A stretch of DNA of 64,000 bases from Candidatus Helarchaeota archaeon (GCA_019058315.1 JAHPZH010000003.1:364451-428450), one strand, 5' to 3'; positions 21,902 to 34,269 are shown, counted from the stretch's first letter. Notes: generated from the sequence alone by a model not told the origin. Program-made: numbers and translations.

Positions 21902-23464
21902 TTATGGAGGTTTTGATGTAGATTTTTTTTCTTCTTCTTTTTCCATAAAATTTTTCATTGATAGATAATAAGAAGTATCAGATTTTAGCTTTTCTTGAAG
22001 AACTTGCTTTTGAAGTGATTTTAAATTTCTAGATCTTTTCCCATTAGATAATTTCTTTAATAATTTTATACCAAATGGCTTTTCTTTTTCAATTTCTTTG
22101 GTAATAATATAACCTTCCTTGATTGCATTTTGAAAGAGTTCTTCACCAATTTTTGTTCTAGTTATTACTGTATTCCAACCTCCAGGTGATCCAATGGACC
22201 CGGATGATATATCAGAGAGCTCATTTGTTAGGTCCACACATAAATGGCATGCGTGGCGAGCATATTTTGTTACATCTTTGATTGGTACCTGAACTGGTTC
22301 TCCCTCACCGCGATGGACAAAGAATTTTCCCTTATCAATATTCATTTTTGTAGCTTCGGTAAGAGAAGTTTGACAATTCTCTTCTACTATTTTAATTAAA
22401 TTTGGATAGGGAAAACTTTCCATACAAAAAATCCCAATAATATATTTAACATTTCCCCATATTTCTGACATTATATTAGATGTGACTTGATATTTTCGCA
22501 TTGCTTGAACTTGGCAGGGAGTTCCTACAAAGGCAATAGATTTTAGTCCAGAGACTTTTATTAGATCTAGTGCTGATAAGTTTGCTGCGACTGAATATAT
22601 TGTACCTGCGGCTTTAATTGCCTCATCTTTATTTCTAATTAAAATTGGTTGTGTATTCCAAGGTTCACCTTCTTTTTGAACTACTCCAATAGCCCCATCA
22701 ATAAGATTCTTATCAAACAGATAAGTCAAAAGTGTTGTTACTATCCCTCCATCTTGGGCTACTTTTTTAATTTTTTGATCTTTGGTTTGAGCAGAAACTA
22801 CAGTTATATTCAAACCAACTGGATCAGCTTTAAGTTCTTTAATAAAATCAACTTTTTTATCATTCATATATCCTTTTAATACATTTATATGTAGAAAAGT
22901 CCTCGGACAACTCGCCCAACAGAGCCCGCAATGAATACATTTATTTTCATCAACAGTGGGTGTTTCTCCCATTGTGATTGCTTTTACTGGGCAAATACTA
23001 AAGCATGCCCCACAACCACAACATAATTCCTTTTCAACAATAGGAGTTATCGGCTCTAATGGCACTTTATATGTTGTGGCAGAAGTTAATTTTAAAAAAA
23101 TATTACCATTTTCTTCAGACATTATAATTTTTGGTTTAAAACTTAATTCAGAGGTCCCTTGTTTTATATCTATTAAATTATCACCAATTAATTCAGCAAG
23201 GGCTTTGTAAACTTCAAATTCTGTAAATTCAGTATTTTCAATAATTTCTGGAACGGTTAAAAATCCATTTTTTTTAATTAATAATAGAATCCTATGTTTA
23301 ATCAACTCAATATCATAAATTTTATCAATTATTGCATCTAATTCTAAAGGAGAAATACGTCCACTATTCAATATTACCTTCTGGTTTTCCAATAAATTTT
23401 TTATCTTAAAACTTATTGCTGCTTCACAAACTGCATTGAATGTTTCTTTATCTACTTTTTCCAT
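21902..23464 (-). CDS. FrhB/FdhB-family F420-binding flavoprotein with N-terminal wHTH and ferredoxin domains
   Basis: CCGCGACFSICP, CIHCGLCWASCP, AQDGGIVT, VGTPCQ, IGIFCME, ACHLCVD, SSGSIGSPGGWNTV; ATG 23464 after GGTGA. Confidence 0.88.
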   Translation of the reverse strand: MEKVDKETFNAVCEAAISFKIKNLLENQKVILNSGRISPLELDAIIDKIYDIELIKHRILLLIKKNGFLTVPEIIENTEFTEFEVYKALAELIGDNLIDIKQGTSELSFKPKIIMSEENGNIFLKLTSATTYKVPLEPITPIVEKELCCGCGACFSICPVKAITMGETPTVDENKCIHCGLCWASCPRTFLHINVLKGYMNDKKVDFIKELKADPVGLNITVVSAQTKDQKIKKVAQDGGIVTTLLTYLFDKNLIDGAIGVVQKEGEPWNTQPILIRNKDEAIKAAGTIYSVAANLSALDLIKVSGLKSIAFVGTPCQVQAMRKYQVTSNIMSEIWGNVKYIIGIFCMESFPYPNLIKIVEENCQTSLTEATKMNIDKGKFFVHRGEGEPVQVPIKDVTKYARHACHLCVDLTNELSDISSGSIGSPGGWNTVITRTKIGEELFQNAIKEGYIITKEIEKEKPFGIKLLKKLSNGKRSRNLKSLQKQVLQEKLKSDTSYYLSMKNFMEKEEEKKSTSKPP

Positions 23465-23487
23465 GGGATTCACCTAATTTTTTTTAT

Positions 23488-24080: not shown

Positions 24081-26072
24081 TTAAGTTTGAATTTCTTCTT
24101 CTAACATAGCTTCAACTTGGTTATCAATTGTCTCGTCCCTATAGTATCTAAGACTTAAGGCACGTGCAGGACAACTCGCAACACAAATTCCACAGCCTTT
24201 ACAAAGCATCTCATCTACTTCAGCGATACCATTTTCATTAATAGTAATTGCACCATAAGGGCAATTTCTTTCGCACGTTCCACAACCAACACATAATTCT
24301 TCGATAACGCTTGGATTAATAAGCTCCAATAGAAACCTTTCAGCTAATACAAAGTCAGTAGCTGCAATAGCTGCGGCTTTAGCAGTTGATACTGAGTATG
24401 GCACATTCTTTGGACCATGAGCAGCACCGCATATATATACTCCGCTGACTTTAGTTTCTTGTGGGCTCAAACATCCATGTATTTCTTTTAGAAAACCACT
24501 AGGTGCTTTATCAAGTCCTAAAATATCCATTATTTTCTTTGTAGAACTTGCAGGAACCATCGCCACCGATAAAACCACAAGGTCAAATTCTTCTTTAATT
24601 ACTTTTCCTTGAAGTGTATCCTCGCCTCGTAATATAAGATTCTTTGTCTCTGGATCTTCTTTAACTACTCCAATTTTTCCACGAATGAACCGTATATCGG
24701 GATTTTGTCCGCGTATTCTTGAATAATATTCTTCTTGATCTTTGTCAGCAGTTCTTATATCAATGTAGAAGATTGAAAGGTCCATATTATCAAATTCTTG
24801 CATTAGTAATTGAGCATTTTTAATTGCAACCATACAGCAGACACCACCTGAACAATAAGCGTTATCTTTTAGATTTCGTGATCCAACACATTGTATCATT
24901 GCTACTTTTTTTGGAACCTTACCATCACTCGGTCTTGTTATATGCCCACCAGTAGGCCCTGTCGGGCTTAACATGCGCTCAAGTTCAATTTGGGTAACAA
25001 CATTTAGATATTTACCATATCCATATTCGCCAGTTGGATCATATATATCAAATCCCGTAGCTATTATAATTGCGCCGACGTCCAATTCAATTTCTTCAGG
25101 CTCTTGTTCGTATTTTATTGCTCCTGCGAGACAATTTTTTTCACATTGTTTACAATTAATACAGTATTCTTTTGAAATATATGCAACTTTTGGGACTGCT
25201 TGGGGAAATAATATGTTGATTGCCTTTCTAGTACCTAAACCATAATTAAATTCGTTTGGGATATTTATCGGACAAACTTCCATACATCTACCACAGCCCG
25301 TGCAGACATTTTCATCAACGAATTTGGCATTTTTCTTAATTTTAACCTTAAATTGTCCTGCAGTTCCTGAAATATCCTCAACTTCAGAATAAGTAAGTAT
25401 TTGAACATTAGGATGTTTTGCTACTTCGACCATTTTAGGGGCCAATATTCAGATTGCACAATCATCTGTAGGAAATACTCGATCTAATTGTGCCATTTTT
25501 CCTCCAATACTTGGGGATGACTCAATAAGATAAACGGGAGTTCCAGTATTAGCAACACCTAAAGCGGCTGAGATACCACCAATTCCACCACCAATGACCA
25601 TCACCGATTTATATACATCCATTTCTTTTATTGGAACATCTTCCATTTGATTTGCTCTTGCAATACCGCCTTTCATTAATTGGATAGCTTTTTCAGTAGC
25701 AGCTTTAGGATCCTTCGAATGAACAAATGATACTTGTTCTCGTAAGTTAACCATTTCAAAGAAGTATTTACTTATACCAGCAGATTCAAGAAGGGCTCTA
25801 TAAGTCGGTTCATGAATTTTTGGGGTTCATGCACCAACAACAACTCGGTTAAGTCCGAGTTTTTCAATATCTTCCTTAATCATATTTTGTGGAGTAGAAC
25901 TACACATAAATGCGGCTGTTTTAGATAGAACTACGTTTGGTTCGTTTTCTAAAGCTTTAGCGACTTTCTCAACGTCCACCACACCACCGATGTTTACGCC
26001 TCAAAAGCAGACATAAACACCTATCTTTATCGAACTTTCAATATTTTTTCCAATGCTGTTTTCATCTTGCAT
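24081..26072 (-). CDS. hdrA: Heterodisulfide reductase subunit A, selenoprotein (Sec24, Sec82, Sec208), 663 aa
   Basis: One frame from ATG 26072: IGVYVCF-U-GVNIGG (TGA 26001-26003), VVVGA-U-TPKIHE (25827-25829), TDDCAI-U-ILAPKM (25449-25451); GGGIGG FAD motif, IQCVGSR, ferredoxin motifs. Joins ORF-track pieces 25449..25754 and 24081..25445. Confidence 0.93.
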
Positions 26073-26410: not shown

Positions 26411-27571
26411 TTATGAAATATTTTTAGAAACAGTATTTTGATTATTATCTTCTATTTTAAGTTGTAACATTGTAATATCGGGATTATATTTATAATTGAC
26501 TGTTATATCTTGATTAGAATCCCATTTAATCTTTCCTAACATGTTAGGTGGTAGTTCAAAGAATTCAGATTGAATCCCACTAACTTGTATAGTAACTCCT
26601 TCGAAATTATTTTTAGTTTTATTTTTCAAAGTAATTTTTATGCTATTTCCGTCAATTTCCTTTTTTACAAGTTCAATTTGATCGGGGGTTATTATTTTAC
26701 CCAAAGCATTACTCTTTTCTCCTACAATAGGACTAAATAAGTCCGGTTCGGTTACTTTACCTTCGATGATATTTATAGGGATTGTAAATTGGGTTTTTTC
26801 ACCTTTAAAACTGGTTGCCTCTATCTTTAAATACCAGCTATTTTGGTCCCCAACTCTATGATTTACTCCTAGACTGACTTGTGTTTCCCATAGATAGTTA
26901 TGAGAAGGTTCTGCATCAGTTGGGATCTTTAAATTAAGCTTTCCATTCGTAGGGGGATTTTTAATATTGGATTTGGCTTTTTGAATTGGAGGTTTCTTTT
27001 TATTATGAACACATTGCTTCCAGAACTCAGGGCATTGGCAAATTGTGTTAATATCTTGGATTAATTCAACGTTAAGTTCCTTATAATTTTCCAAAGTATA
27101 TTCCAAATCTATATTTTCATCAGGCATAAAAGTATCTTTAGATATACTAATTGCTACCCCTTTTATCTTTACATCAATAGGATGAGAGGACATACGTTCT
27201 GTAGCTGTTGCTTTAATAAATATTGATTTATCGCTAAAATAATTCTCTTCCTGTTTTGTTTTATTATTGATTAGGGACAGGTTTGCTCTTATAAAATAGG
27301 TAATACGTGAGTCAATGCTTGGCACTACACGGCGACTGATAGGTATGCTTCTTAATCTTTTATAAGTACCATTTTCAAAAATACCTTTATAAAAAATATC
27401 ATTTTTTGATATAATCAGCTCTTTCGCACAAGGTCGTTTAATATATAAACGTACACCGCCCCATGTAATGTCTATCTGTTCTTCTTCAAGTTCGTTCATA
27501 TTAAATTTAGACGAAACTGTAGTGGGAATTCCGACTTTCGCAATTTTTTCTGTTTCGAGATTTACTAACAT
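26411..27571 (-). CDS. Arrestin-fold (N+C) protein with C-terminal shared beta domain
   Basis: GTYKRLRSIPISRRVVPS..ITYFIRANL; ISISKDTFMPDENIDL..LKIPTDAEPS..WYLKIE..IPINI arrestin-like patterns; C-terminal IQSEFFE domain. Confidence 0.65.
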   Translation of the reverse strand: MLVNLETEKIAKVGIPTTVSSKFNMNELEEEQIDITWGGVRLYIKRPCAKELIISKNDIFYKGIFENGTYKRLRSIPISRRVVPSIDSRITYFIRANLSLINNKTKQEENYFSDKSIFIKATATERMSSHPIDVKIKGVAISISKDTFMPDENIDLEYTLENYKELNVELIQDINTICQCPEFWKQCVHNKKKPPIQKAKSNIKNPPTNGKLNLKIPTDAEPSHNYLWETQVSLGVNHRVGDQNSWYLKIEATSFKGEKTQFTIPINIIEGKVTEPDLFSPIVGEKSNALGKIITPDQIELVKKEIDGNSIKITLKNKTKNNFEGVTIQVSGIQSEFFELPPNMLGKIKWDSNQDITVNYKYNPDITMLQLKIEDNNQNTVSKNIS

Positions 27572-27598
27572 ATAAATTTCACATAAAAAAAAGGAATT

Positions 27599-28510
27599 TT
27601 ATTCTTGATGTGCTCTAACGACTAAATCTGCAAATAGTTCCATGTCAACGAGTAGAGTTTTTATTTGATCTTTAGAAGCACTGTCCAAATCCTTAGGTCT
27701 CATTAAAAGAACGCTTAAAATGTACTTGAAAATATATATTTCAATTTCTTTATCAGCTTCTTTTGATTCACCTTTAAAATAAACGGAATCTGCATTAAAG
27801 AAATTTTCTCGCATCGTATTACAAGAACTAATGAAATCTCTAAGATCAGCTCTTAATTGTAAACCAGCAGAAATTCCAGGAACATTATGAACTATTACAT
27901 TACCATTTATGTCGCTAATTATGATTTTTGCTTTTATTTCAGATAATTGCTTTTCTGCATTTTCTACATGTGATTGTAGATCTTTATAATTTGCGACAAG
28001 TAAATCCCGAAAAACTATAGATAACTTCTCTTGTTCATAGATTGAGGTAATTCGTTCTTCTGGGTTCCAATTTTCAAAAATCTTTGGGAAAATTCCTTTT
28101 GCCTTTTGTAAATTTGTATCTAGAAGTTCTTTTTGGTAGCCTTGAGCATCATATTTATGATAGAAAATTAAAACGGTAGGTTTAATATTTAAATCATCAA
28201 ATGCTTTCTTTAGTTTCTTAAAGTAATCTACTGCTGTGTCAAATTTATCTGGGTCATGTAAATCGATAATTGGGATTAAAACATCAGTTTCCTTAAAGAT
28301 TTCAGGTTTAGCTAAGTAATCTGCTCTGAATTGATCTTGTCCTCCAAAATCGAAGAAACTAACATTTAGTCCGAGATATGGATGAGATCTAACTTCATAC
28401 ATTACAGTAGGTCGAAATGATTTTGTATCTTCTGGACTTTTTGATGCGAATGTTGTTGCGTATATACTTGTCTTTCCACAACCACTTATTCCTACAAGCG
28501 ATATTTTCAT
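27599..28510 (-). CDS. Rag/Gtr-like small GTPase with C-terminal roadblock-like domain
   Basis: GISGCGKTS, RPT switch I, DFGGQ, HKYD G4 (Rag-type His); C-terminal IIISDINGNVIV. Confidence 0.8.
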   Translation of the reverse strand: MKISLVGISGCGKTSIYATTFASKSPEDTKSFRPTVMYEVRSHPYLGLNVSFFDFGGQDQFRADYLAKPEIFKETDVLIPIIDLHDPDKFDTAVDYFKKLKKAFDDLNIKPTVLIFYHKYDAQGYQKELLDTNLQKAKGIFPKIFENWNPEERITSIYEQEKLSIVFRDLLVANYKDLQSHVENAEKQLSEIKAKIIISDINGNVIVHNVPGISAGLQLRADLRDFISSCNTMRENFFNADSVYFKGESKEADKEIEIYIFKYILSVLLMRPKDLDSASKDQIKTLLVDMELFADLVVRAHQE

Positions 28511-28577
28511 TTTTTCTTCACTTCACCTAATTACATTTTTTATAATATTTTTAATTTTTTCAATTATCAAGAAATTA

Positions 28578-30059
28578 TTACTTTTTAGCTTGTTTTTTCT
28601 CAAGTATTTTTTGAATGTTTGCAACTCGTGAGAGTACTAGACCCTTATAGTCATTTAATTGAATTAAATATTCAGTATCATCTTTAGTTCTTGGATACTC
28701 GAATTCTAGTTCCTCGAAAGGATACCATACTTTAATATTAGTTTCCCAAGATGCCACTTCAAAGAAATCTTGAACGCTTGCAATATGAACCTTAACATTA
28801 TCTAGTGTTTCCCCGCTAGAATTTGTTACTATAAATCTAATGAACTTATTATCTAAGTCTGTTTTTACTAATTTAACCATCTTTCGTGCAGCTGCTTTAA
28901 TAATATCATCCTTAGTAGCAGGTTCATATTTTGGTCTTTCAACTACTTCTTGAGGAGCTTGATATACAAATTTTCTCCTTGATTTAATTGTGTATAGACT
29001 TTGTTTTTTCATTTTCGCTAGATTTAGAACAAATCGTAATTTACCTCTTTCTAAAGGTTTTGCTTCAATATAACCATTATCAATAGCATCTTGAAAAAGT
29101 TCCCAACCTAGCCCTGTTCGGATTAGAACTGTTGAATATCCATCAGCAGATCCTACGGAACCTACAGAAATGTCTGAATGCTCAGAAGTGAGGTCTGTAC
29201 AATAATAACAAGAACTTGACTTATATCTGTTTAAAGCATGAACCTTTCTTACTATTTCTTCTCCATTTTTAAGATGAAAAATGAATTTACCCTTAGAGAT
29301 TGAACATTTTTGAACATTATTCCAACTAGAATTATTATCTGCTAGGAATCCGCTTAATCCTTCATACGAAAAAGAATCCATACAAAATAAACCAATCTTA
29401 AATATATTAGCCCGCATAAATAGTTTCAATAGTCCAAATGGTGATTTTTGCATTTTATCAACAGAATCGATGTTGCATGGAGTTCCTACGAACCCGATAG
29501 AGTGAGCTCCTTTCCTTAAAGAGTCGATTAATGGAATTACTGTCTGAGAATGGCAATATATCGAACCTGATGACTCTAATAGTTCTTCCTTTGAAGTTAC
29601 ATATTTAGGAATTGGTTTCCAAGGTTCTTCTTTGCTTTTAAGAGTAACTATTACACCATCAAATAGTTTCGAATCGAGACCATAAAGTAATAATGCAGTA
29701 ACTACGCCTCCATCTTGACCTTTAATTTCAGTATTAGTAGCTTTTGCAGTAAAAGCAGCTTTATATTCACCGATTAAGCCAGGAATAGTAGTTATTGTTC
29801 GTGGACACTGATTGTAACAAATTCCACATCCTGTACATTTACCACTTAATTTGGGTCGGTCTGTAATAGGATCCCATATCAGCACATCACAAGTTGCCAC
29901 ACAAGCGGAACATTTTGTGCAAACTCCACTATCAACTATTTCTCGCATTAATTTTCCAAAGCTATCCTTTCTTTCTTCAGCCTCTAGACGTTTTCCAGCG
30001 TATTTGAATGATTCCAAGTAACTTTCAGTTTCTTTTTCTGTGTCTTCAGTATTAGACAT
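28578..30059 (-). CDS. FrhB-family protein with C-terminal shared beta domain
   Basis: CTKCSACVATC, CTGCGICYNQCP, GQDGGVVT, VGTPCN, IGLFCMD, SCYYCTD, ISVGSVGS; ~100-aa extra C-terminal domain. Confidence 0.88.
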   Translation of the reverse strand: MSNTEDTEKETESYLESFKYAGKRLEAEERKDSFGKLMREIVDSGVCTKCSACVATCDVLIWDPITDRPKLSGKCTGCGICYNQCPRTITTIPGLIGEYKAAFTAKATNTEIKGQDGGVVTALLLYGLDSKLFDGVIVTLKSKEEPWKPIPKYVTSKEELLESSGSIYCHSQTVIPLIDSLRKGAHSIGFVGTPCNIDSVDKMQKSPFGLLKLFMRANIFKIGLFCMDSFSYEGLSGFLADNNSSWNNVQKCSISKGKFIFHLKNGEEIVRKVHALNRYKSSSCYYCTDLTSEHSDISVGSVGSADGYSTVLIRTGLGWELFQDAIDNGYIEAKPLERGKLRFVLNLAKMKKQSLYTIKSRRKFVYQAPQEVVERPKYEPATKDDIIKAAARKMVKLVKTDLDNKFIRFIVTNSSGETLDNVKVHIASVQDFFEVASWETNIKVWYPFEELEFEYPRTKDDTEYLIQLNDYKGLVLSRVANIQKILEKKQAKK

Positions 30060-30325
30060 AATTATAACTTCCCTTTCTTGATTTTTACTTATTCTATAAA
30101 TTAATTTCTAATTGATTAAAAAATATTGTTAATGAGTATTTTTTTAATTTTGTTATACAAAAATTGGTAAAAATGCATAAAATCAATTAATAAAAAATTT
30201 AAAATTTCTAAAAACATAAATAAATCCTTATATTTTTTAATGAAATTTAACAACCCGCTCTTTTTTAATTTAATATTAAAAATTTAATATATTTCTAAAA
30301 TATACAAAAAATTAAATCAAAAATA

Positions 30326-32221
30326 TTAGTAAGCTCCTTCTGCTTTTTTTATGTCTAATCTTAGAATGTCGGTATTTGAGATAATTCCTAGAATTTCATT
30401 TGGATTCTCTTCGGAAGCAATTACAAGATAGCTAATATCCTTCGTTATCATCATTCTATTAGCCTCATTTATTTTGGTTTTTGGGCTAATAGTCACAAGA
30501 GGCGAGCTCATTATCTCATTCACTTTTGTGGAACGTGGATCCTTGCCTTTCTCTATAATTTCTCTCATAATATCCCTTTCTGTTATAATTCCAACAGATT
30601 TCCCGTTATCTGTTATTAAAACACTCCCTATTTTCTTTTCAAACAGTACGTCTAATAAGGTTGCAATATTTTCATCTAGGGGTAATTTCACAACGTCGCT
30701 AATCATTATTTCTTCAACCATTTTTTCTCCTAAGTTTCTTATTTCAACAAAATTTGTTTCTTCTTCTGTTTCTAATCGTTGGGAGAGGTATGCGTTAATT
30801 ATATCGTTATGTCTTATAATTCCAGCTAATTGACCATCATCTAAGACTGGCAACTTTTTCACATCGTATTGAATAACCATCATAGCTGCCTTACGTATAT
30901 TGTCATTAATATTAAGAACTCGAATAGGCGAAGTCATAATGTCTTTACATTGTATTTTACTGGGATCTGCAGAACGGCGAAGCAGACAACTTCTTATGAC
31001 CTTTCGAAGAATATCACGGTTTGTAATAATACCTATCGGTTTTTCGCCTAATGTGACTAATAAATAATCACTTTTTTTAGAATTCATTAATGAAACAGCA
31101 TCACTAATCATTGCAGAGTAAGAAATAGTTAATGGCTCTTTATCCATAAATTCTTTAACTAAAATTTTTTCAAAGAATGATTCTTCTTTCGGAATGAGTT
31201 GTTTTGGTTGGATCTCTTTCACAAGTAATTTCCGATCAGGACCACTTATCTCAAAAATATAGTGACTATTTAAATCACTTATTGGATATTGAAAAACCAA
31301 ATCTTCACCTGCAAACCAAGTATCTATATTAGTTTCCCAATGACTTGTCTCAAAAAATTCTTGAACTTGTGAGATTTCTATGCTAATATTGAATAAATCT
31401 TTTAGGCTTACATTTTTTACAGCAATTTTAATTTTTTTTCGGTTTTCAATTAATTCAAGTTTAGTAAACATTGCAATTCTCTTAAAATATTCAGATTTAT
31501 CTTCAGTTTCAGCAATATTTGAAATCTCAAATTGTCTTGGAGTAGATGGGGGTGAAGATCTTGAAATATCATGAAATAATAAATATGCTAATTTTTCATT
31601 TTTCTTTGTAGTAGCACTAGCAAGCGAATTTATAGCATCTGGAGAAATTTGTGGCAATAAAGTCTTGAAAATATTATGTAAATCTTTTTCTATGGCTTTT
31701 CCTTCCTCAATTGTAGTGCGATCTTTTTCCGACTTTACCACTTTATAAATTGCGTGCTCTTTTTCGATCAAAATATAAAGTCTATCAGCAAGTGCTTTAA
31801 TTTTTGAATATAATGACACAAGTAGATCAGATCCTAAAAAAGAATAATCTTTAGGTAAACTCAACATTAAAACATAGGTTTCAGGAGTTTTTTCATCCAT
31901 CCCAGAACGTTCTTTTTTTCTATATGATACACCAGCAAATTTCATTGCTAAATAGATACGATCTCCAAATTCTAAATCGACATGATCCAAATCTTCTTGG
32001 GATTCAGTATCTAAAAACCAAATTGAGTGGATTTTGATAATTCTCTCTTGATTTTTATCATTTTTCAAATATTCTGGATAAGTATACAAAGTTAAATGAC
32101 CTCTAGCCTCATCGAAGAAACAAAGAAATATTTCATAAAGTGATTTATCCCGACTAATAATCGGAGTTCTTGATTCTATATCATTATTTTCAATTGGAGA
32201 TTCTTTTCTATTTTGAAACAA
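30326..32221 (-). CDS. Longin/uDENN-like plus shared beta domain plus four CBS domains
   Basis: N-terminal IFLCFFDEARGHLTLYTYP; central VQEFFE..WETNI; four CBS motifs (GIITNRD, GIIRHND, GIITERD, GIISNTD). Confidence 0.75.
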   Translation of the reverse strand: MFQNRKESPIENNDIESRTPIISRDKSLYEIFLCFFDEARGHLTLYTYPEYLKNDKNQERIIKIHSIWFLDTESQEDLDHVDLEFGDRIYLAMKFAGVSYRKKERSGMDEKTPETYVLMLSLPKDYSFLGSDLLVSLYSKIKALADRLYILIEKEHAIYKVVKSEKDRTTIEEGKAIEKDLHNIFKTLLPQISPDAINSLASATTKKNEKLAYLLFHDISRSSPPSTPRQFEISNIAETEDKSEYFKRIAMFTKLELIENRKKIKIAVKNVSLKDLFNISIEISQVQEFFETSHWETNIDTWFAGEDLVFQYPISDLNSHYIFEISGPDRKLLVKEIQPKQLIPKEESFFEKILVKEFMDKEPLTISYSAMISDAVSLMNSKKSDYLLVTLGEKPIGIITNRDILRKVIRSCLLRRSADPSKIQCKDIMTSPIRVLNINDNIRKAAMMVIQYDVKKLPVLDDGQLAGIIRHNDIINAYLSQRLETEEETNFVEIRNLGEKMVEEIMISDVVKLPLDENIATLLDVLFEKKIGSVLITDNGKSVGIITERDIMREIIEKGKDPRSTKVNEIMSSPLVTISPKTKINEANRMMITKDISYLVIASEENPNEILGIISNTDILRLDIKKAEGAY

Positions 32222-32244
32222 ACTAAACCATCTAATAAGTAATA

Positions 32245-32679
32245 TTAAGAAAATTCTACTTTAAAATGGCGAGAATATCTTTTAAATCGTTCTAAAAATT
32301 TCTTTCTAACTACTCCAATAATTATATCATCTCTGGTGACAGCGACCCGTTTAACTTTCGATTTATTTATCAGATCCCGGAACTCCTCAATTGAGTAAAT
32401 TGGCTCTTCTGCTTTCACCGATATAAATGGTTTATACATCACATCTTTAGCTTTGAGTATTCGAGGATCTTTTTCTCTTGCAACCAAGTCCCAAATAATT
32501 CCATCAGTTATTATACCCACAACTTTATCGTTTTTATCTCTAACAAAAACAGAATCCGTCCATTTATCACGCATCAATTTTGCAACCTGGGGTATAAGAT
32601 CATCTATTGAACAAAAAACAACAGTCGGGGACATTATATCTTCAAAAGTAGCTGATTTTTCAGAAGTTTTAGAGGACAT
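32245..32679 (-). CDS. Stand-alone CBS-pair protein
   Basis: DIMSPTVV, VGIITDG, AKDVM, IIGVV. Confidence 0.85.
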   Translation of the reverse strand: MSSKTSEKSATFEDIMSPTVVFCSIDDLIPQVAKLMRDKWTDSVFVRDKNDKVVGIITDGIIWDLVAREKDPRILKAKDVMYKPFISVKAEEPIYSIEEFRDLINKSKVKRVAVTRDDIIIGVVRKKFLERFKRYSRHFKVEFS

Positions 32680-32817
32680 GTTTCTATTTCCTATTAAAAA
32701 TCTATTAAACTTTTTATTAAAACTTTTCTAATTATTATAATTCAGTATTTCATTAAATATTAAATAATTAGATTTTATTGATTTTAAATTTAAGCATATA
32801 ACAATTATATCTTGAAA

Positions 32818-33237
32818 TTAACTTCTCAAACGTATGGCGTTCATTTTACACGCATTAGCATCCGAATATTTACCTATTCTTTCGTAGCATTCTGCCAAAT
32901 TTTCCCAGATGGATGGTTTATCAGGTTTTATATTTATTGCTTTTCTGAAATAGGAAATTGCTTCATCGAATTTTCCCTCTTGGACATGAATAACTCCTAA
33001 ATTATTTAAAGCAACAAATTGTTGGGGATTTAACTCAAGAGATTTATTAAAACATTCCACCGCTTTATTAAAATTATCTAAATTAAGATAAGCAGTGCCT
33101 AAATTATTCCATACCTCAGAATTATTTTTTTCCTTTAAAATTTCTTCATAATATTTTATAGATTCCTCAAATTCACAGTTTTCCATTGCTTTTTTAGCTT
33201 TTTCTTCCAAAGTTTCGTTTGAGGATGAGGATTCCAT
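32818..33237 (-). CDS. TPR-repeat protein
   Basis: WNNLGTAY..AVECFNKSLELNP; LNNLGVIH..AISYFRKAINIKP. Confidence 0.9.
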   Translation of the reverse strand: MESSSSNETLEEKAKKAMENCEFEESIKYYEEILKEKNNSEVWNNLGTAYLNLDNFNKAVECFNKSLELNPQQFVALNNLGVIHVQEGKFDEAISYFRKAINIKPDKPSIWENLAECYERIGKYSDANACKMNAIRLRS

Positions 33238-33309
33238 ACCACCACATTTTATTTTGCTCTTAAAAAATTTTCCAAATTCAGAAGATTTAATTCATTTTTA
33301 TAAAAGAAA

Positions 33310-34269
33310 TTATAAAATTGCTGATACTTCAGCTTCCAAATTCTTTAAATTTAATATCATTATCCCTAAGCTAAACTTTTTTGCATTAACAACGGAGAAA
33401 AAAGCCACTTGGGGAGTAATATCAGCTAGAATTATACAATCATTATCTTTGGAACGCCAAAACCGAATATCAGTCTCGTCTGATGATAAAAATCCAATTT
33501 TTTTCATATGTGAAAAGACTTCCTCTTTTTCTTTTTCTGCTTCGACAAGAGCTTTTAGACAAACATATTCTAATTCTTCAGAAGTGAGATATTTTGATTT
33601 ACTAGCTGATGCAATTTCTAATCCATCATCTTTATTAATTAAAATACATGCGTCAGTTTTAGTTTTTTTATTGAATTGATCACATAGATTTTGCAACCGC
33701 GTTTGTTTACCCTTTAAAACTTTTTCATTTCTTATAATATTATCCAATATTTGACCTAATGTCTTACGTGCTGTATTTTTAGGAATAGAACTTGAATATA
33801 TTTGAATCTTTGCTTTTTCCCAAATAAGTTCATGCCCTTTTTTCAATTTATTTTCGATTTGCTTTAAAGTTAGCTTTTTTATGTCATTTTTTGTAGCAAT
33901 CACATAAATTAAGCAAGAGGGATTATATCGTGTTACAATTTGAAATGCTCTCCAAAATTCTAGAATAGCCAGTTCAAATTCCAAAGAGTTAGAAGAGTCG
34001 AGTATAAATAAAAATATATCAATTCTAGAAAATATCTTCGATGACCAACTTTCAGTATAATATTCCTCAATAAATTGCTTTTGACCACCTAAATCAAAAC
34101 TGACTATTTCCAAAAGATTTCGATATTTATAATTTCTAGTCTCCAGAAATTCTGTGGGTTTTAAGTTCTCGATTTCTTCCCATTCTTTCCCCAAAAATAC
34201 ATGTTGTATTAATGAAGTCTTCCCAGAATTCTTTAATCCCATAATAACTAATTTCATTTTACATCCCAA
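33310..34269 (-). CDS. Rag/Gtr-like small GTPase with C-terminal roadblock domain
   Basis: GLKNSGKTS, LKPT, DLGGQKQF, TKND; C-terminal DACILINKDDGLEIAS. Confidence 0.8.
   Translation of the reverse strand: MGCKMKLVIMGLKNSGKTSLIQHVFLGKEWEEIENLKPTEFLETRNYKYRNLLEIVSFDLGGQKQFIEEYYTESWSSKIFSRIDIFLFILDSSNSLEFELAILEFWRAFQIVTRYNPSCLIYVIATKNDIKKLTLKQIENKLKKGHELIWEKAKIQIYSSSIPKNTARKTLGQILDNIIRNEKVLKGKQTRLQNLCDQFNKKTKTDACILINKDDGLEIASASKSKYLTSEELEYVCLKALVEAEKEKEEVFSHMKKIGFLSSDETDIRFWRSKDNDCIILADITPQVAFFSVVNAKKFSLGIMILNLKNLEAEVSAIL

Follow-up and report, generated by a model that had tools for sequence, protein, structure and literature searches.

In a stretch of 64,000 nucleotides from Candidatus Helarchaeota archaeon (GCA_019058315.1 JAHPZH010000003.1:364451-428450), hereafter the window, three otherwise unrelated neighbouring genes each carry one copy of the same small domain of ~95 amino acids (aa) and are grouped around the gene for a Rag-like GTPase, P0004. 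The three proteins are an FrhB-family iron-sulfur flavoprotein (P0002), a protein that combines a longin domain with four CBS domains (P0003) and a protein of predicted arrestin/Vps26 fold (P0001). As judged from comparison of sequences and gene orders, this module is conserved across several Asgard families, and its core is the domain-bearing FrhB gene beside the gene for P0004, usually followed by the domain-bearing arrestin-fold gene. Our strongest inference is that the proteins of the module act together around P0004.

Results

Three neighbouring proteins share a small private domain

An earlier note on this DNA had proposed that a beta-rich domain of ~90 aa, which it did not recognise, is common to these three unrelated neighbours. 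Pairwise BLASTP linked the copy in the FrhB-family protein to the copy in P0003 (39% identity over 75 residues, E 1e-16) and the P0003 copy to that in P0001 (26% identity, E 2e-6); the FrhB protein gave no pairwise BLASTP match with P0001. To compare profiles, orthologues from related genomes were aligned separately for each of the three types, and hhalign joined all pairs: FrhB-type with longin-type at a probability of 99.7% (E 1e-25), longin-type with arrestin-type at 96.7% (E 5e-10) and FrhB-type with arrestin-type at 95.0% (E 4e-8). The segments lie where they had been proposed, all on the minus strand: the FrhB copy at 28602..28895 (P0002 residues ~389-486) and the arrestin copy at 26414..26701 (P0001 residues ~291-386), both delimited by the envelope of a hidden Markov model (HMM), and the copy in the longin protein, with seven predicted strands, at 31193..31492 (P0003 residues ~244-343). 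The whole genome (5.8 Mb) contains exactly three copies of the domain, and by these sequence measures three homologous copies on neighbouring genes far exceed chance. In an alignment of 34 copies, an N, an E and a W are invariant and an F-E and an E-E pair are near-invariant in all three types, which suits a shared binding surface.

Searches of Pfam with the three isolated copies returned noise only, even at E <= 10, and the domain matched no curated model of the named immunoglobulin (Ig)-like families (CARDB, DUF11, C2, RhoGDI, FnIII). A language-model atlas search with the domain likewise gave nothing at 0.8 or above. In an AlphaFold2 (AF2) model of P0003, residues 246-342 form seven strands with a predicted local distance difference test score (pLDDT) of 73-91. 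The modelled fold resembles many unrelated Ig-like sandwiches (VIA Z ~9), and its best Foldseek matches, at E ~1e-4, include the C2 domain of synaptotagmin, RhoGDI, UNC119 and Kir cytoplasmic domains. In this model the domain is a generic seven-stranded Ig-like sandwich, whose fold is itself uninformative on function.

A profile search of 1.84 billion cluster representatives yielded 106 matches at E <= 1e-3. Those longer than 250 aa fell into the same three architectures, namely 34 longin proteins (one fused to CBS), 15 arrestin-fold proteins and eight FrhB proteins with the domain, and the remainder were short fragments and four repeat proteins that matched only part of the profile. These four (P0064, P0072, P0109 and P0111), which are low-complexity or CARDB/DUF11 repeat proteins, were discounted as spurious or very distant hits. 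A further weak HMM match, within the C-lobes of arrestins and the linkers of longins, was too short to be informative. A search of a second database found 406 proteins; the named ones among the 120 listed are hypothetical or CBS-containing and come from labelled Asgard bins, except for one bin labelled bacterium. Judged by these searches, the family is small, private and confined to three architectures, and with no Pfam match the domain can still be called unrecognised. The earlier note had set its proposal against the case of a generic, scattered Ig-like domain without synteny; here the fold is indeed generic, but the family is narrow and its gene neighbourhood is conserved. In a tree of 63 domain copies, all arrestin-type copies form one clade with a support of 100/99. 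Within this clade the branching broadly tracks families, a pattern in keeping with long vertical inheritance. The same tree does not separate the FrhB type from the longin type.

The neighbourhood is conserved across Asgard families

To read synteny, we sampled 15 loci from relatives (L034-L048). The domain-bearing FrhB gene adjoins the GTPase gene in 13 of these loci, and in eight of the 15 it is contiguous with both the GTPase gene and the domain-bearing arrestin-fold gene; the CBS-pair gene and the domain-bearing longin gene stand beside the core pair or not more than ~15 kb away. By coordinates, a domain-bearing FrhB gene lies beside a P0004 orthologue in 34 genomes from seven families. 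Three loci from f3, a sister family in the same taxonomic order (L034-L036), have, one after another, genes for a tetratricopeptide repeat (TPR) protein, the CBS pair, longin with the domain, four CBS domains (4xCBS), FrhB with the domain, the GTPase and the arrestin-fold protein with the domain. A CBS-pair homologue stands directly upstream of the domain-bearing longin gene in L034-L038, L044 and L045. In another family of the same class (L039-L043), the FrhB and GTPase genes are adjacent and the arrestin-fold gene is next to them or within ~4 kb, while one or two domain-bearing longin genes lie ~8-35 kb off, on the same contig where found, with HdrA between. The same genes recur, with variations, in four families outside the class of the window (L044-L047). 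In L047 (G264:C1:4150000-4169000), the cluster combines the domain-bearing FrhB gene with a GTPase orthologue in divergent orientation, a CBS pair and, in tandem, two paralogues of the domain-bearing longin gene; two further Rag-like genes lie within 8 kb. The earlier note had named a lack of conserved synteny among the points that would refute its reading, and the neighbourhood proved to be conserved across several Asgard lineages rather than scattered.

Presence and absence were followed in 301 genomes across the phylum, with P0004 orthologues taken at E <= 1e-50. Of the 301 genomes, 104 yielded the domain and 90 a P0004 orthologue; as related genomes are not independent, these counts overstate the case, and we take them as a supportive pattern and not as statistics. 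Domain and GTPase both occur in families f2, f3, f4, f11, f21, f22 and f25, the domain alone occurs in f16, and neither the domain nor a P0004 orthologue was found in the 22 other families of this sample. Three near-complete genomes of the main family (G040, G011 and G216) contain domain-bearing longin and/or arrestin-fold genes and neither a domain-bearing FrhB gene nor a P0004 orthologue, a pattern that suggests that the FrhB protein and the GTPase were gained or lost as a pair.

P0004 is the conserved GTPase of the module

P0004 (27599..28510, minus strand) is a RagA/Gtr1-like GTPase, with a Pfam Gtr1_RagA score of 65.9 bits against a cutoff of 22. When its profile was compared with solved structures, an uncharacterised 'GTP-binding protein' (8yl2, 1e-29) came before RagA (5e-21) and Gtr1 (2e-20), the nearest named solved relatives; RagC/D and Gtr2 followed, and Arf proteins appeared later, at ~1e-10. 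The Rag-like label given to it from the sequence is borne out by these matches. The motifs GxxGxGKT (G1), DFGGQ and HKYD are invariant across 13 orthologues, and the H-K-x-D form of G4 is typical of RagA/Gtr1. With orthologues 48-67% identical over their full length, P0004 is the best-conserved protein of the module and its conserved hub. Sequence matches to solved Rag proteins end near residue 175-211. Rag/Gtr GTPases dimerise through a C-terminal roadblock domain; in P0004 the C-terminal half, of ~140 aa, is conserved as well, and the C-terminal halves of the GTPases gave only noise against Pfam.

The second Rag/Gtr-like GTPase of the window, P0005 (33310..34269, minus strand), is encoded next to the TPR gene at the upstream end of the cluster and is 30% identical to P0004. 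The earlier note had counted two co-oriented Rag-like GTPases in the module. Both are indeed on the minus strand and above the Gtr1_RagA cutoff (81.7 bits for P0005), but only P0004 is kept: the nearest relatives of P0005, from the same genome and the same taxonomic order, have 34-44% identity and are all on other contigs, and among the genomes examined P0005 is in the cluster only in this one. We therefore rejected P0005 as a conserved partner of P0004 throughout the module, and no second Rag paralogue for an obligate heterodimer is kept in the module in the loci read. P0005 may pair with P0004 in this genome; it is also possible that the partner of P0004 is encoded elsewhere, or that P0004 forms a homodimer. 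The exact 319-aa product of P0005 from its TTG start is absent from the protein collection in which the products of the neighbouring genes are present, and the annotated start may be an ATG four codons downstream, at ~34257.

P0003 joins a predicted longin fold to four CBS domains

P0003 (30326..32221, minus strand; 631 aa) fuses a longin domain, a helical linker, the shared domain and four CBS domains in one chain. The four CBS domains (30329..31171, minus strand), corresponding to two Bateman modules, occupy the C-terminal half and were found by Pfam as four stretches (E 5e-43). An AF2 model of residues 1-350, built from 17 orthologues, had a mean pLDDT of 72 and showed the longin order of strands and helices in residues 27-197 (longin domain at ~27-197, 31631..32143, minus strand). 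VIA matched this part to Sec22 (Z 10.2), to the Lokiarchaeota roadblock-longin protein 8yqg_B and the GATOR1 chain 8fw5_C (both 10.1), to DENND1A (9.7) and to the folliculin-complex chain 6nzd_H (9.0), with VAMP7, TRAPP and the small subunits of adaptors also in the range of 9-10.2. Of the two labels proposed for this protein, longin thus holds at the level of the fold, with Z ~10, and 4xCBS is confirmed by the four Pfam stretches. By sequence, the isolated longin part gave only noise against Pfam, and no solved structure was found with the profile of the domain-bearing longin family; a language-model search led to a cluster in which 19% of the members are annotated with NPR2.

According to a 2025 survey, the longin domains of the eukaryotic GTPase-activating proteins (GAPs) FLCN, NPRL2, SMCR8 and C9orf72 have in common a G-P motif immediately ahead of strand 2, which in FLCN, NPRL2 and SMCR8 lies near a catalytic arginine finger; motif and finger were also found in some Asgard longins, whose target GTPases were posed as a question (PMC12290439). 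All 17 orthologues of the domain-bearing longin protein have G41, where the loop leading into predicted strand 2 ends; it is followed by H, Q or N and, three residues after G41, by a near-invariant Pro, giving G-H-x-P. Two arginines, R101 and R105, belong to an S-x-R-x-K-x-R-x-G stretch at a hairpin between predicted strands; the first is present in all of these orthologues and the second in nearly all. As placed on the model, this pattern of G41 and R101 is at most suggestive of a signature like that of GAPs.

The longin and CBS parts are fused into one gene in the window and in L037 and L038. In L034 (1256-3156), L035 (6182-8139) and L036 (8495-10392), two genes encode them, with a few bases in common, the 4xCBS gene overlapping the stop of the domain-bearing longin gene. 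Such a fusion is a classic sign of joint working.

P0002 is a domain-bearing FrhB protein encoded near an HdrA-like gene

P0002 (28578..30059, minus strand) has an N-terminal 2x[4Fe-4S] ferredoxin part, the FrhB region and the shared domain at its C terminus. Pfam assigned FrhB_FdhB_N (79.7 bits), FrhB_FdhB_C (143.8 bits) and Fer4 families to it, and its sequence retains two CxxCxxCxxxC motifs as well as the Cys motifs of FrhB. Its orthologues are 44-57% identical. Members of the FrhB/FdhB family use various partners.

In the window, an HdrA-like gene (24081..26072, minus strand) directly adjoins the module on its downstream side. Its frame is open only when three TGA codons are read through; with TGA read as U, it encodes 663 residues with U at 24, 82 and 208, and these codons presumably specify selenocysteine. 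With translation table 11, every one of these TGA codons interrupts the frame, leaving open reading frames of 101 and 454 aa as the last two pieces, and the HdrA frames in L035, L036, L039, L040 and L045 are split at the corresponding third TGA. A second FrhB-family gene (21902..23473, minus strand; Pfam FrhB_FdhB_N/C), which lacks the shared domain, encodes a protein 34% identical to P0002 with an N-terminal extension of ~140 aa that has weak winged-helix matches (DnaD_N, HTH_9, TrmB). This second FrhB accompanies HdrA in several relatives, and both are directly beside the module in L035, L036 and L045. HdrA homologues are near it in L039, L040, L043 and L046, and HdrA was not seen in the loci L034, L037, L038, L042, L044 and L047. 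The placing of hdrA and a second frhB by the module, as first read from the DNA, is therefore confirmed, for HdrA by the frame with TGA as U and for frhB by Pfam.

P0001 is an arrestin-fold protein, and other genes complete the cluster

P0001 (26411..27571, minus strand; 386 aa) carries the shared domain at its C terminus. Its Pfam Arrestin_C score of 19.8 bits is below the curated cutoff of 27.7, and three of its relatives match arrestin models of Pfam at E down to 3e-5. The AF2 model had a pLDDT of 59 and a poorly modelled N-lobe (pLDDT <50), so that the match to the arrestin fold rests mostly on the C-lobe. VIA gave Z 13.8 for Vps26 over 218 residues, 12.1 for arrestin, 12.0 for Rgp1 and 11.5 for TXNIP, and also matched ARRDC3. 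With the values for Vps26 and arrestin, the arrestin label suggested for P0001 holds as a fold assignment.

Between 26411 and 34269 lie seven open frames, all on the minus strand, which were identified with Pfam. In addition to the genes described above, they include a TPR protein (32818..33237, minus strand; Pfam TPR families) and a stand-alone CBS-pair protein (32245..32679, minus strand; Pfam CBS, two stretches). Both had been counted as members of the module by the earlier note; both are present, and the CBS pair recurs, but among the relatives' loci the TPR gene was found only in L034-L036 from f3, a sister family in the same taxonomic order. Near-identical proteins at NCBI come from 'Promethearchaeota' and 'Helarchaeota' metagenome bins and are named hypothetical, CBS domain-containing, FrhB-like or Arf-like.

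Discussion

With the homology of the copies, their limitation to three architectures, the predicted folds, the gene order and the shared presence and absence across families established, a private domain on three co-inherited proteins with the same invariant positions is best explained as a common docking piece. That this piece serves a GTPase-centred complex is a proposal whose prospects we regard as evenly balanced. In such a complex, the domain would dock the three proteins to the GTPase, to each other or to a single additional partner common to them. By analogy with known systems, the longin protein might regulate P0004, in the manner of a GAP or of a guanine nucleotide exchange factor (GEF), and the CBS modules might feed the adenylate state into the complex. 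The FrhB protein, whether sensor or regulated enzyme, could provide the link between the switch and redox metabolism, and the arrestin-fold protein could be an adaptor. A four-chain complex prediction of P0004 with the three domain copies, using their own alignments and the FrhB copy as partner, gave 0.00 against a mark of 0.32 and counts neither way.

Several observations weigh against a docking role in a signalling complex. Every contact between proteins of the module is one that we infer, as are the direction of signalling and the binding of ligands, and the generic Ig-like fold found by VIA and Foldseek points to no partner. As P0002 keeps all its iron-sulfur Cys motifs, it may be an ordinary working enzyme and not a sensor. 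P0003 and 16 orthologues gave no match to the Pfam families NPR2, Folliculin or DENN even at E <= 1, and the longin of P0003 has G-H-x-P where the eukaryotic GAP longins have G-P (PMC12290439). The gene set also varies: the cluster of L047 is without a domain-bearing arrestin-fold gene and has two domain-bearing longin genes, and in L048 (G051:C1:163000-180000) a domain-bearing FrhB gene for 552 aa stands alone: the 8 kb around it contain no homologue of the GTPase, longin or arrestin-fold genes, and its family yielded no P0004 orthologue at E <= 1e-50. Finally, the 99%-complete genome G040 has longin and arrestin copies and no GTPase orthologue at E <= 1e-50.

The same domain could instead be a membrane- or small-ligand-binding module, similar to C2 or to RhoGDI/UNC119, that brings the proteins to one place without binding them to each other or to the GTPase. 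Such a role would agree with the best Foldseek matches, with the conserved acidic and aromatic residues at strand ends and with the lack of an evident membrane anchor on any protein of the module. However, these weak matches are scattered among many Ig-like families without relation to each other, so that no kinship to C2 or RhoGDI stands out; with seven strands in ~95 aa, the domain is also smaller than a C2 domain, and if it served for targeting in general, one would expect it on further protein types besides the three on which it was found. We consider this role unlikely. That the domain is a generic Ig-like unit which happens to sit on neighbouring genes without a functional link would fit the common fold and the weakest database match, a CARDB/DUF11 repeat protein at E 8e-4. 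This view has already been largely refuted by the tiny size of the family and its three architectures, by a gene order kept across several Asgard families, by the way the domain tracks the GTPase orthologue and by the well-supported arrestin-type clade that branches broadly by family, and we regard mere coincidence as highly improbable.

Another possibility is that the module is mainly metabolic. In this case, the domain-bearing FrhB protein would belong to an electron-bifurcating complex of the HdrA/MvhD type, the assembly, positioning or switching of this enzyme would fall to the GTPase together with the longin and arrestin-fold proteins, and the domain would be a structural attachment point outside nutrient sensing. 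HdrA and a second FrhB beside the module in the window and in L035, L036 and L045, and near it in four further loci, point in this direction, as do the ferredoxin-type and FrhB Cys motifs kept by the domain-bearing FrhB protein and the fact that FrhB and GTPase form the tightest gene pair. Yet HdrA was not seen in six of the loci, the separate FrhB paralogue directly beside HdrA is the more obvious Hdr partner, and CBS, longin and arrestin parts are typical of regulatory or adaptor roles and are not known as enzyme-assembly factors. We think a mainly metabolic module improbable, and return to the docking of regulatory proteins around P0004.

The nearest parallels to a complex of this kind are the eukaryotic Rag/Gtr GTPases, which work with FLCN-FNIP and with NPRL2-NPRL3 of GATOR1 on Ragulator/EGO. 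P0004 is of the Rag family, with RagA/Gtr1 as nearest named solved relatives; the predicted longin fold of P0003 matches chains of GATOR1 and of the folliculin complex at Z 9-10, and this longin domain carries an invariant Gly directly ahead of predicted strand 2 and, in a loop, an invariant Arg; an energy-state input from the CBS modules is plausible. Unlike the eukaryotic system, the module lacks a conserved second Rag, a Ragulator-like set and a DENN domain, and P0003 shows no sequence-level membership in the FLCN or NPRL2 families and has G-H-x-P instead of G-P. It also includes an Fe-S flavoprotein and a protein of arrestin fold, which the private Ig-like domain would attach, and we know of no eukaryotic counterpart for such an attachment. 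The module might be read as an archaeal forerunner of Rag nutrient sensing, in which F420/ferredoxin redox state, through FrhB, and adenylate charge, through CBS, would act by way of a longin GAP on the Rag GTPase, with the arrestin/Vps26-fold protein as output and the Ig-like domain as docking scaffold. In this complete form the scheme is speculative, and we doubt that it holds in all its parts.

Single proteins of the module have other relatives by architecture or fold. The order of longin, linker and all-beta domain in P0003 is that of the mu and delta subunits of adaptor and COPI complexes, and AP2 mu (2xa7_M) aligns over both parts at Z 9.0, with small adaptor subunits matching the longin part at Z 9-9.5. 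However, the root-mean-square deviation from AP2 mu is 10.9 A, the sequences show no similarity and further coat subunits are absent from the surroundings of the module; the mu-homology domain, of ~270 aa in two subdomains, is also much larger than the shared domain of ~95 aa. Like the adenylate sensors of the AMPK gamma/Bateman type, P0003 contains CBS domains in tandem, four in all, and the gene for a further CBS pair is conserved next to that for the longin protein, but the module has no kinase subunits, and its CBS part is joined to a longin protein by fusion or as an overlapping gene. P0001 resembles Vps26, alpha- and beta-arrestins, Rgp1 and TXNIP in its predicted two-lobed arrestin-like fold (Z about 12-14), and Rgp1, as part of the Rab6 GEF Ric1-Rgp1, provides a precedent for an arrestin fold that works on a small GTPase. 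Unlike the matched structures of the arrestin clan, P0001 has an extra C-terminal Ig-like domain and stays below the Arrestin_C cutoff.

Surveys of Asgard archaea have described Rag-like GTPases and NPRL2-like longins, as well as a conserved operon of a LAMTOR1-like protein, a Rab-like GTPase and a DENN protein, and found most such genes outside conserved neighbourhoods (10.1101/2020.10.19.343400; PMC10933270). The GTPase partners of Asgard longins have been left open in published work, and gene order has rarely been informative (PMC10933270; PMC12290439). The proteins described here are of the same classes and from the same lineages as these Rag-like GTPases and the GP-motif longins of FLCN/SMCR8 type. 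In contrast to those, a specific longin and a specific Rag-like GTPase are here syntenic and co-occur across families, and the components differ from those of the LAMTOR1-like/Rab-like/DENN operon. In keeping with the earlier note, which had not recognised a described system, we found no paper describing the FrhB/arrestin/shared-domain module in the full-text literature searched, whose coverage leaves out most subscription journals. A Rag-type GTPase with a longin regulator is of a known kind; what is new here is an unnamed domain that would join this GTPase/longin module to a redox protein and an arrestin-fold protein.

The genomes of Asgard archaea are rich in Rag-, Rab- and Arf-like GTPases, and in longin and roadblock proteins as well, and which regulator belongs to which GTPase is unsettled in published work (PMC10933270; PMC12290439). 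Because of its synteny, its shared presence across lineages and its private domain, we propose the module as one candidate cognate set, comprising a Rag-like GTPase, a longin protein, an arrestin-fold protein and a redox enzyme, which is directly testable. In its own right, the shared domain could be proposed to domain databases as a new family. If the links to FrhB/Hdr redox metabolism and to the CBS modules are functional, a switch of eukaryotic type would have been wired to energy metabolism before eukaryotes arose.

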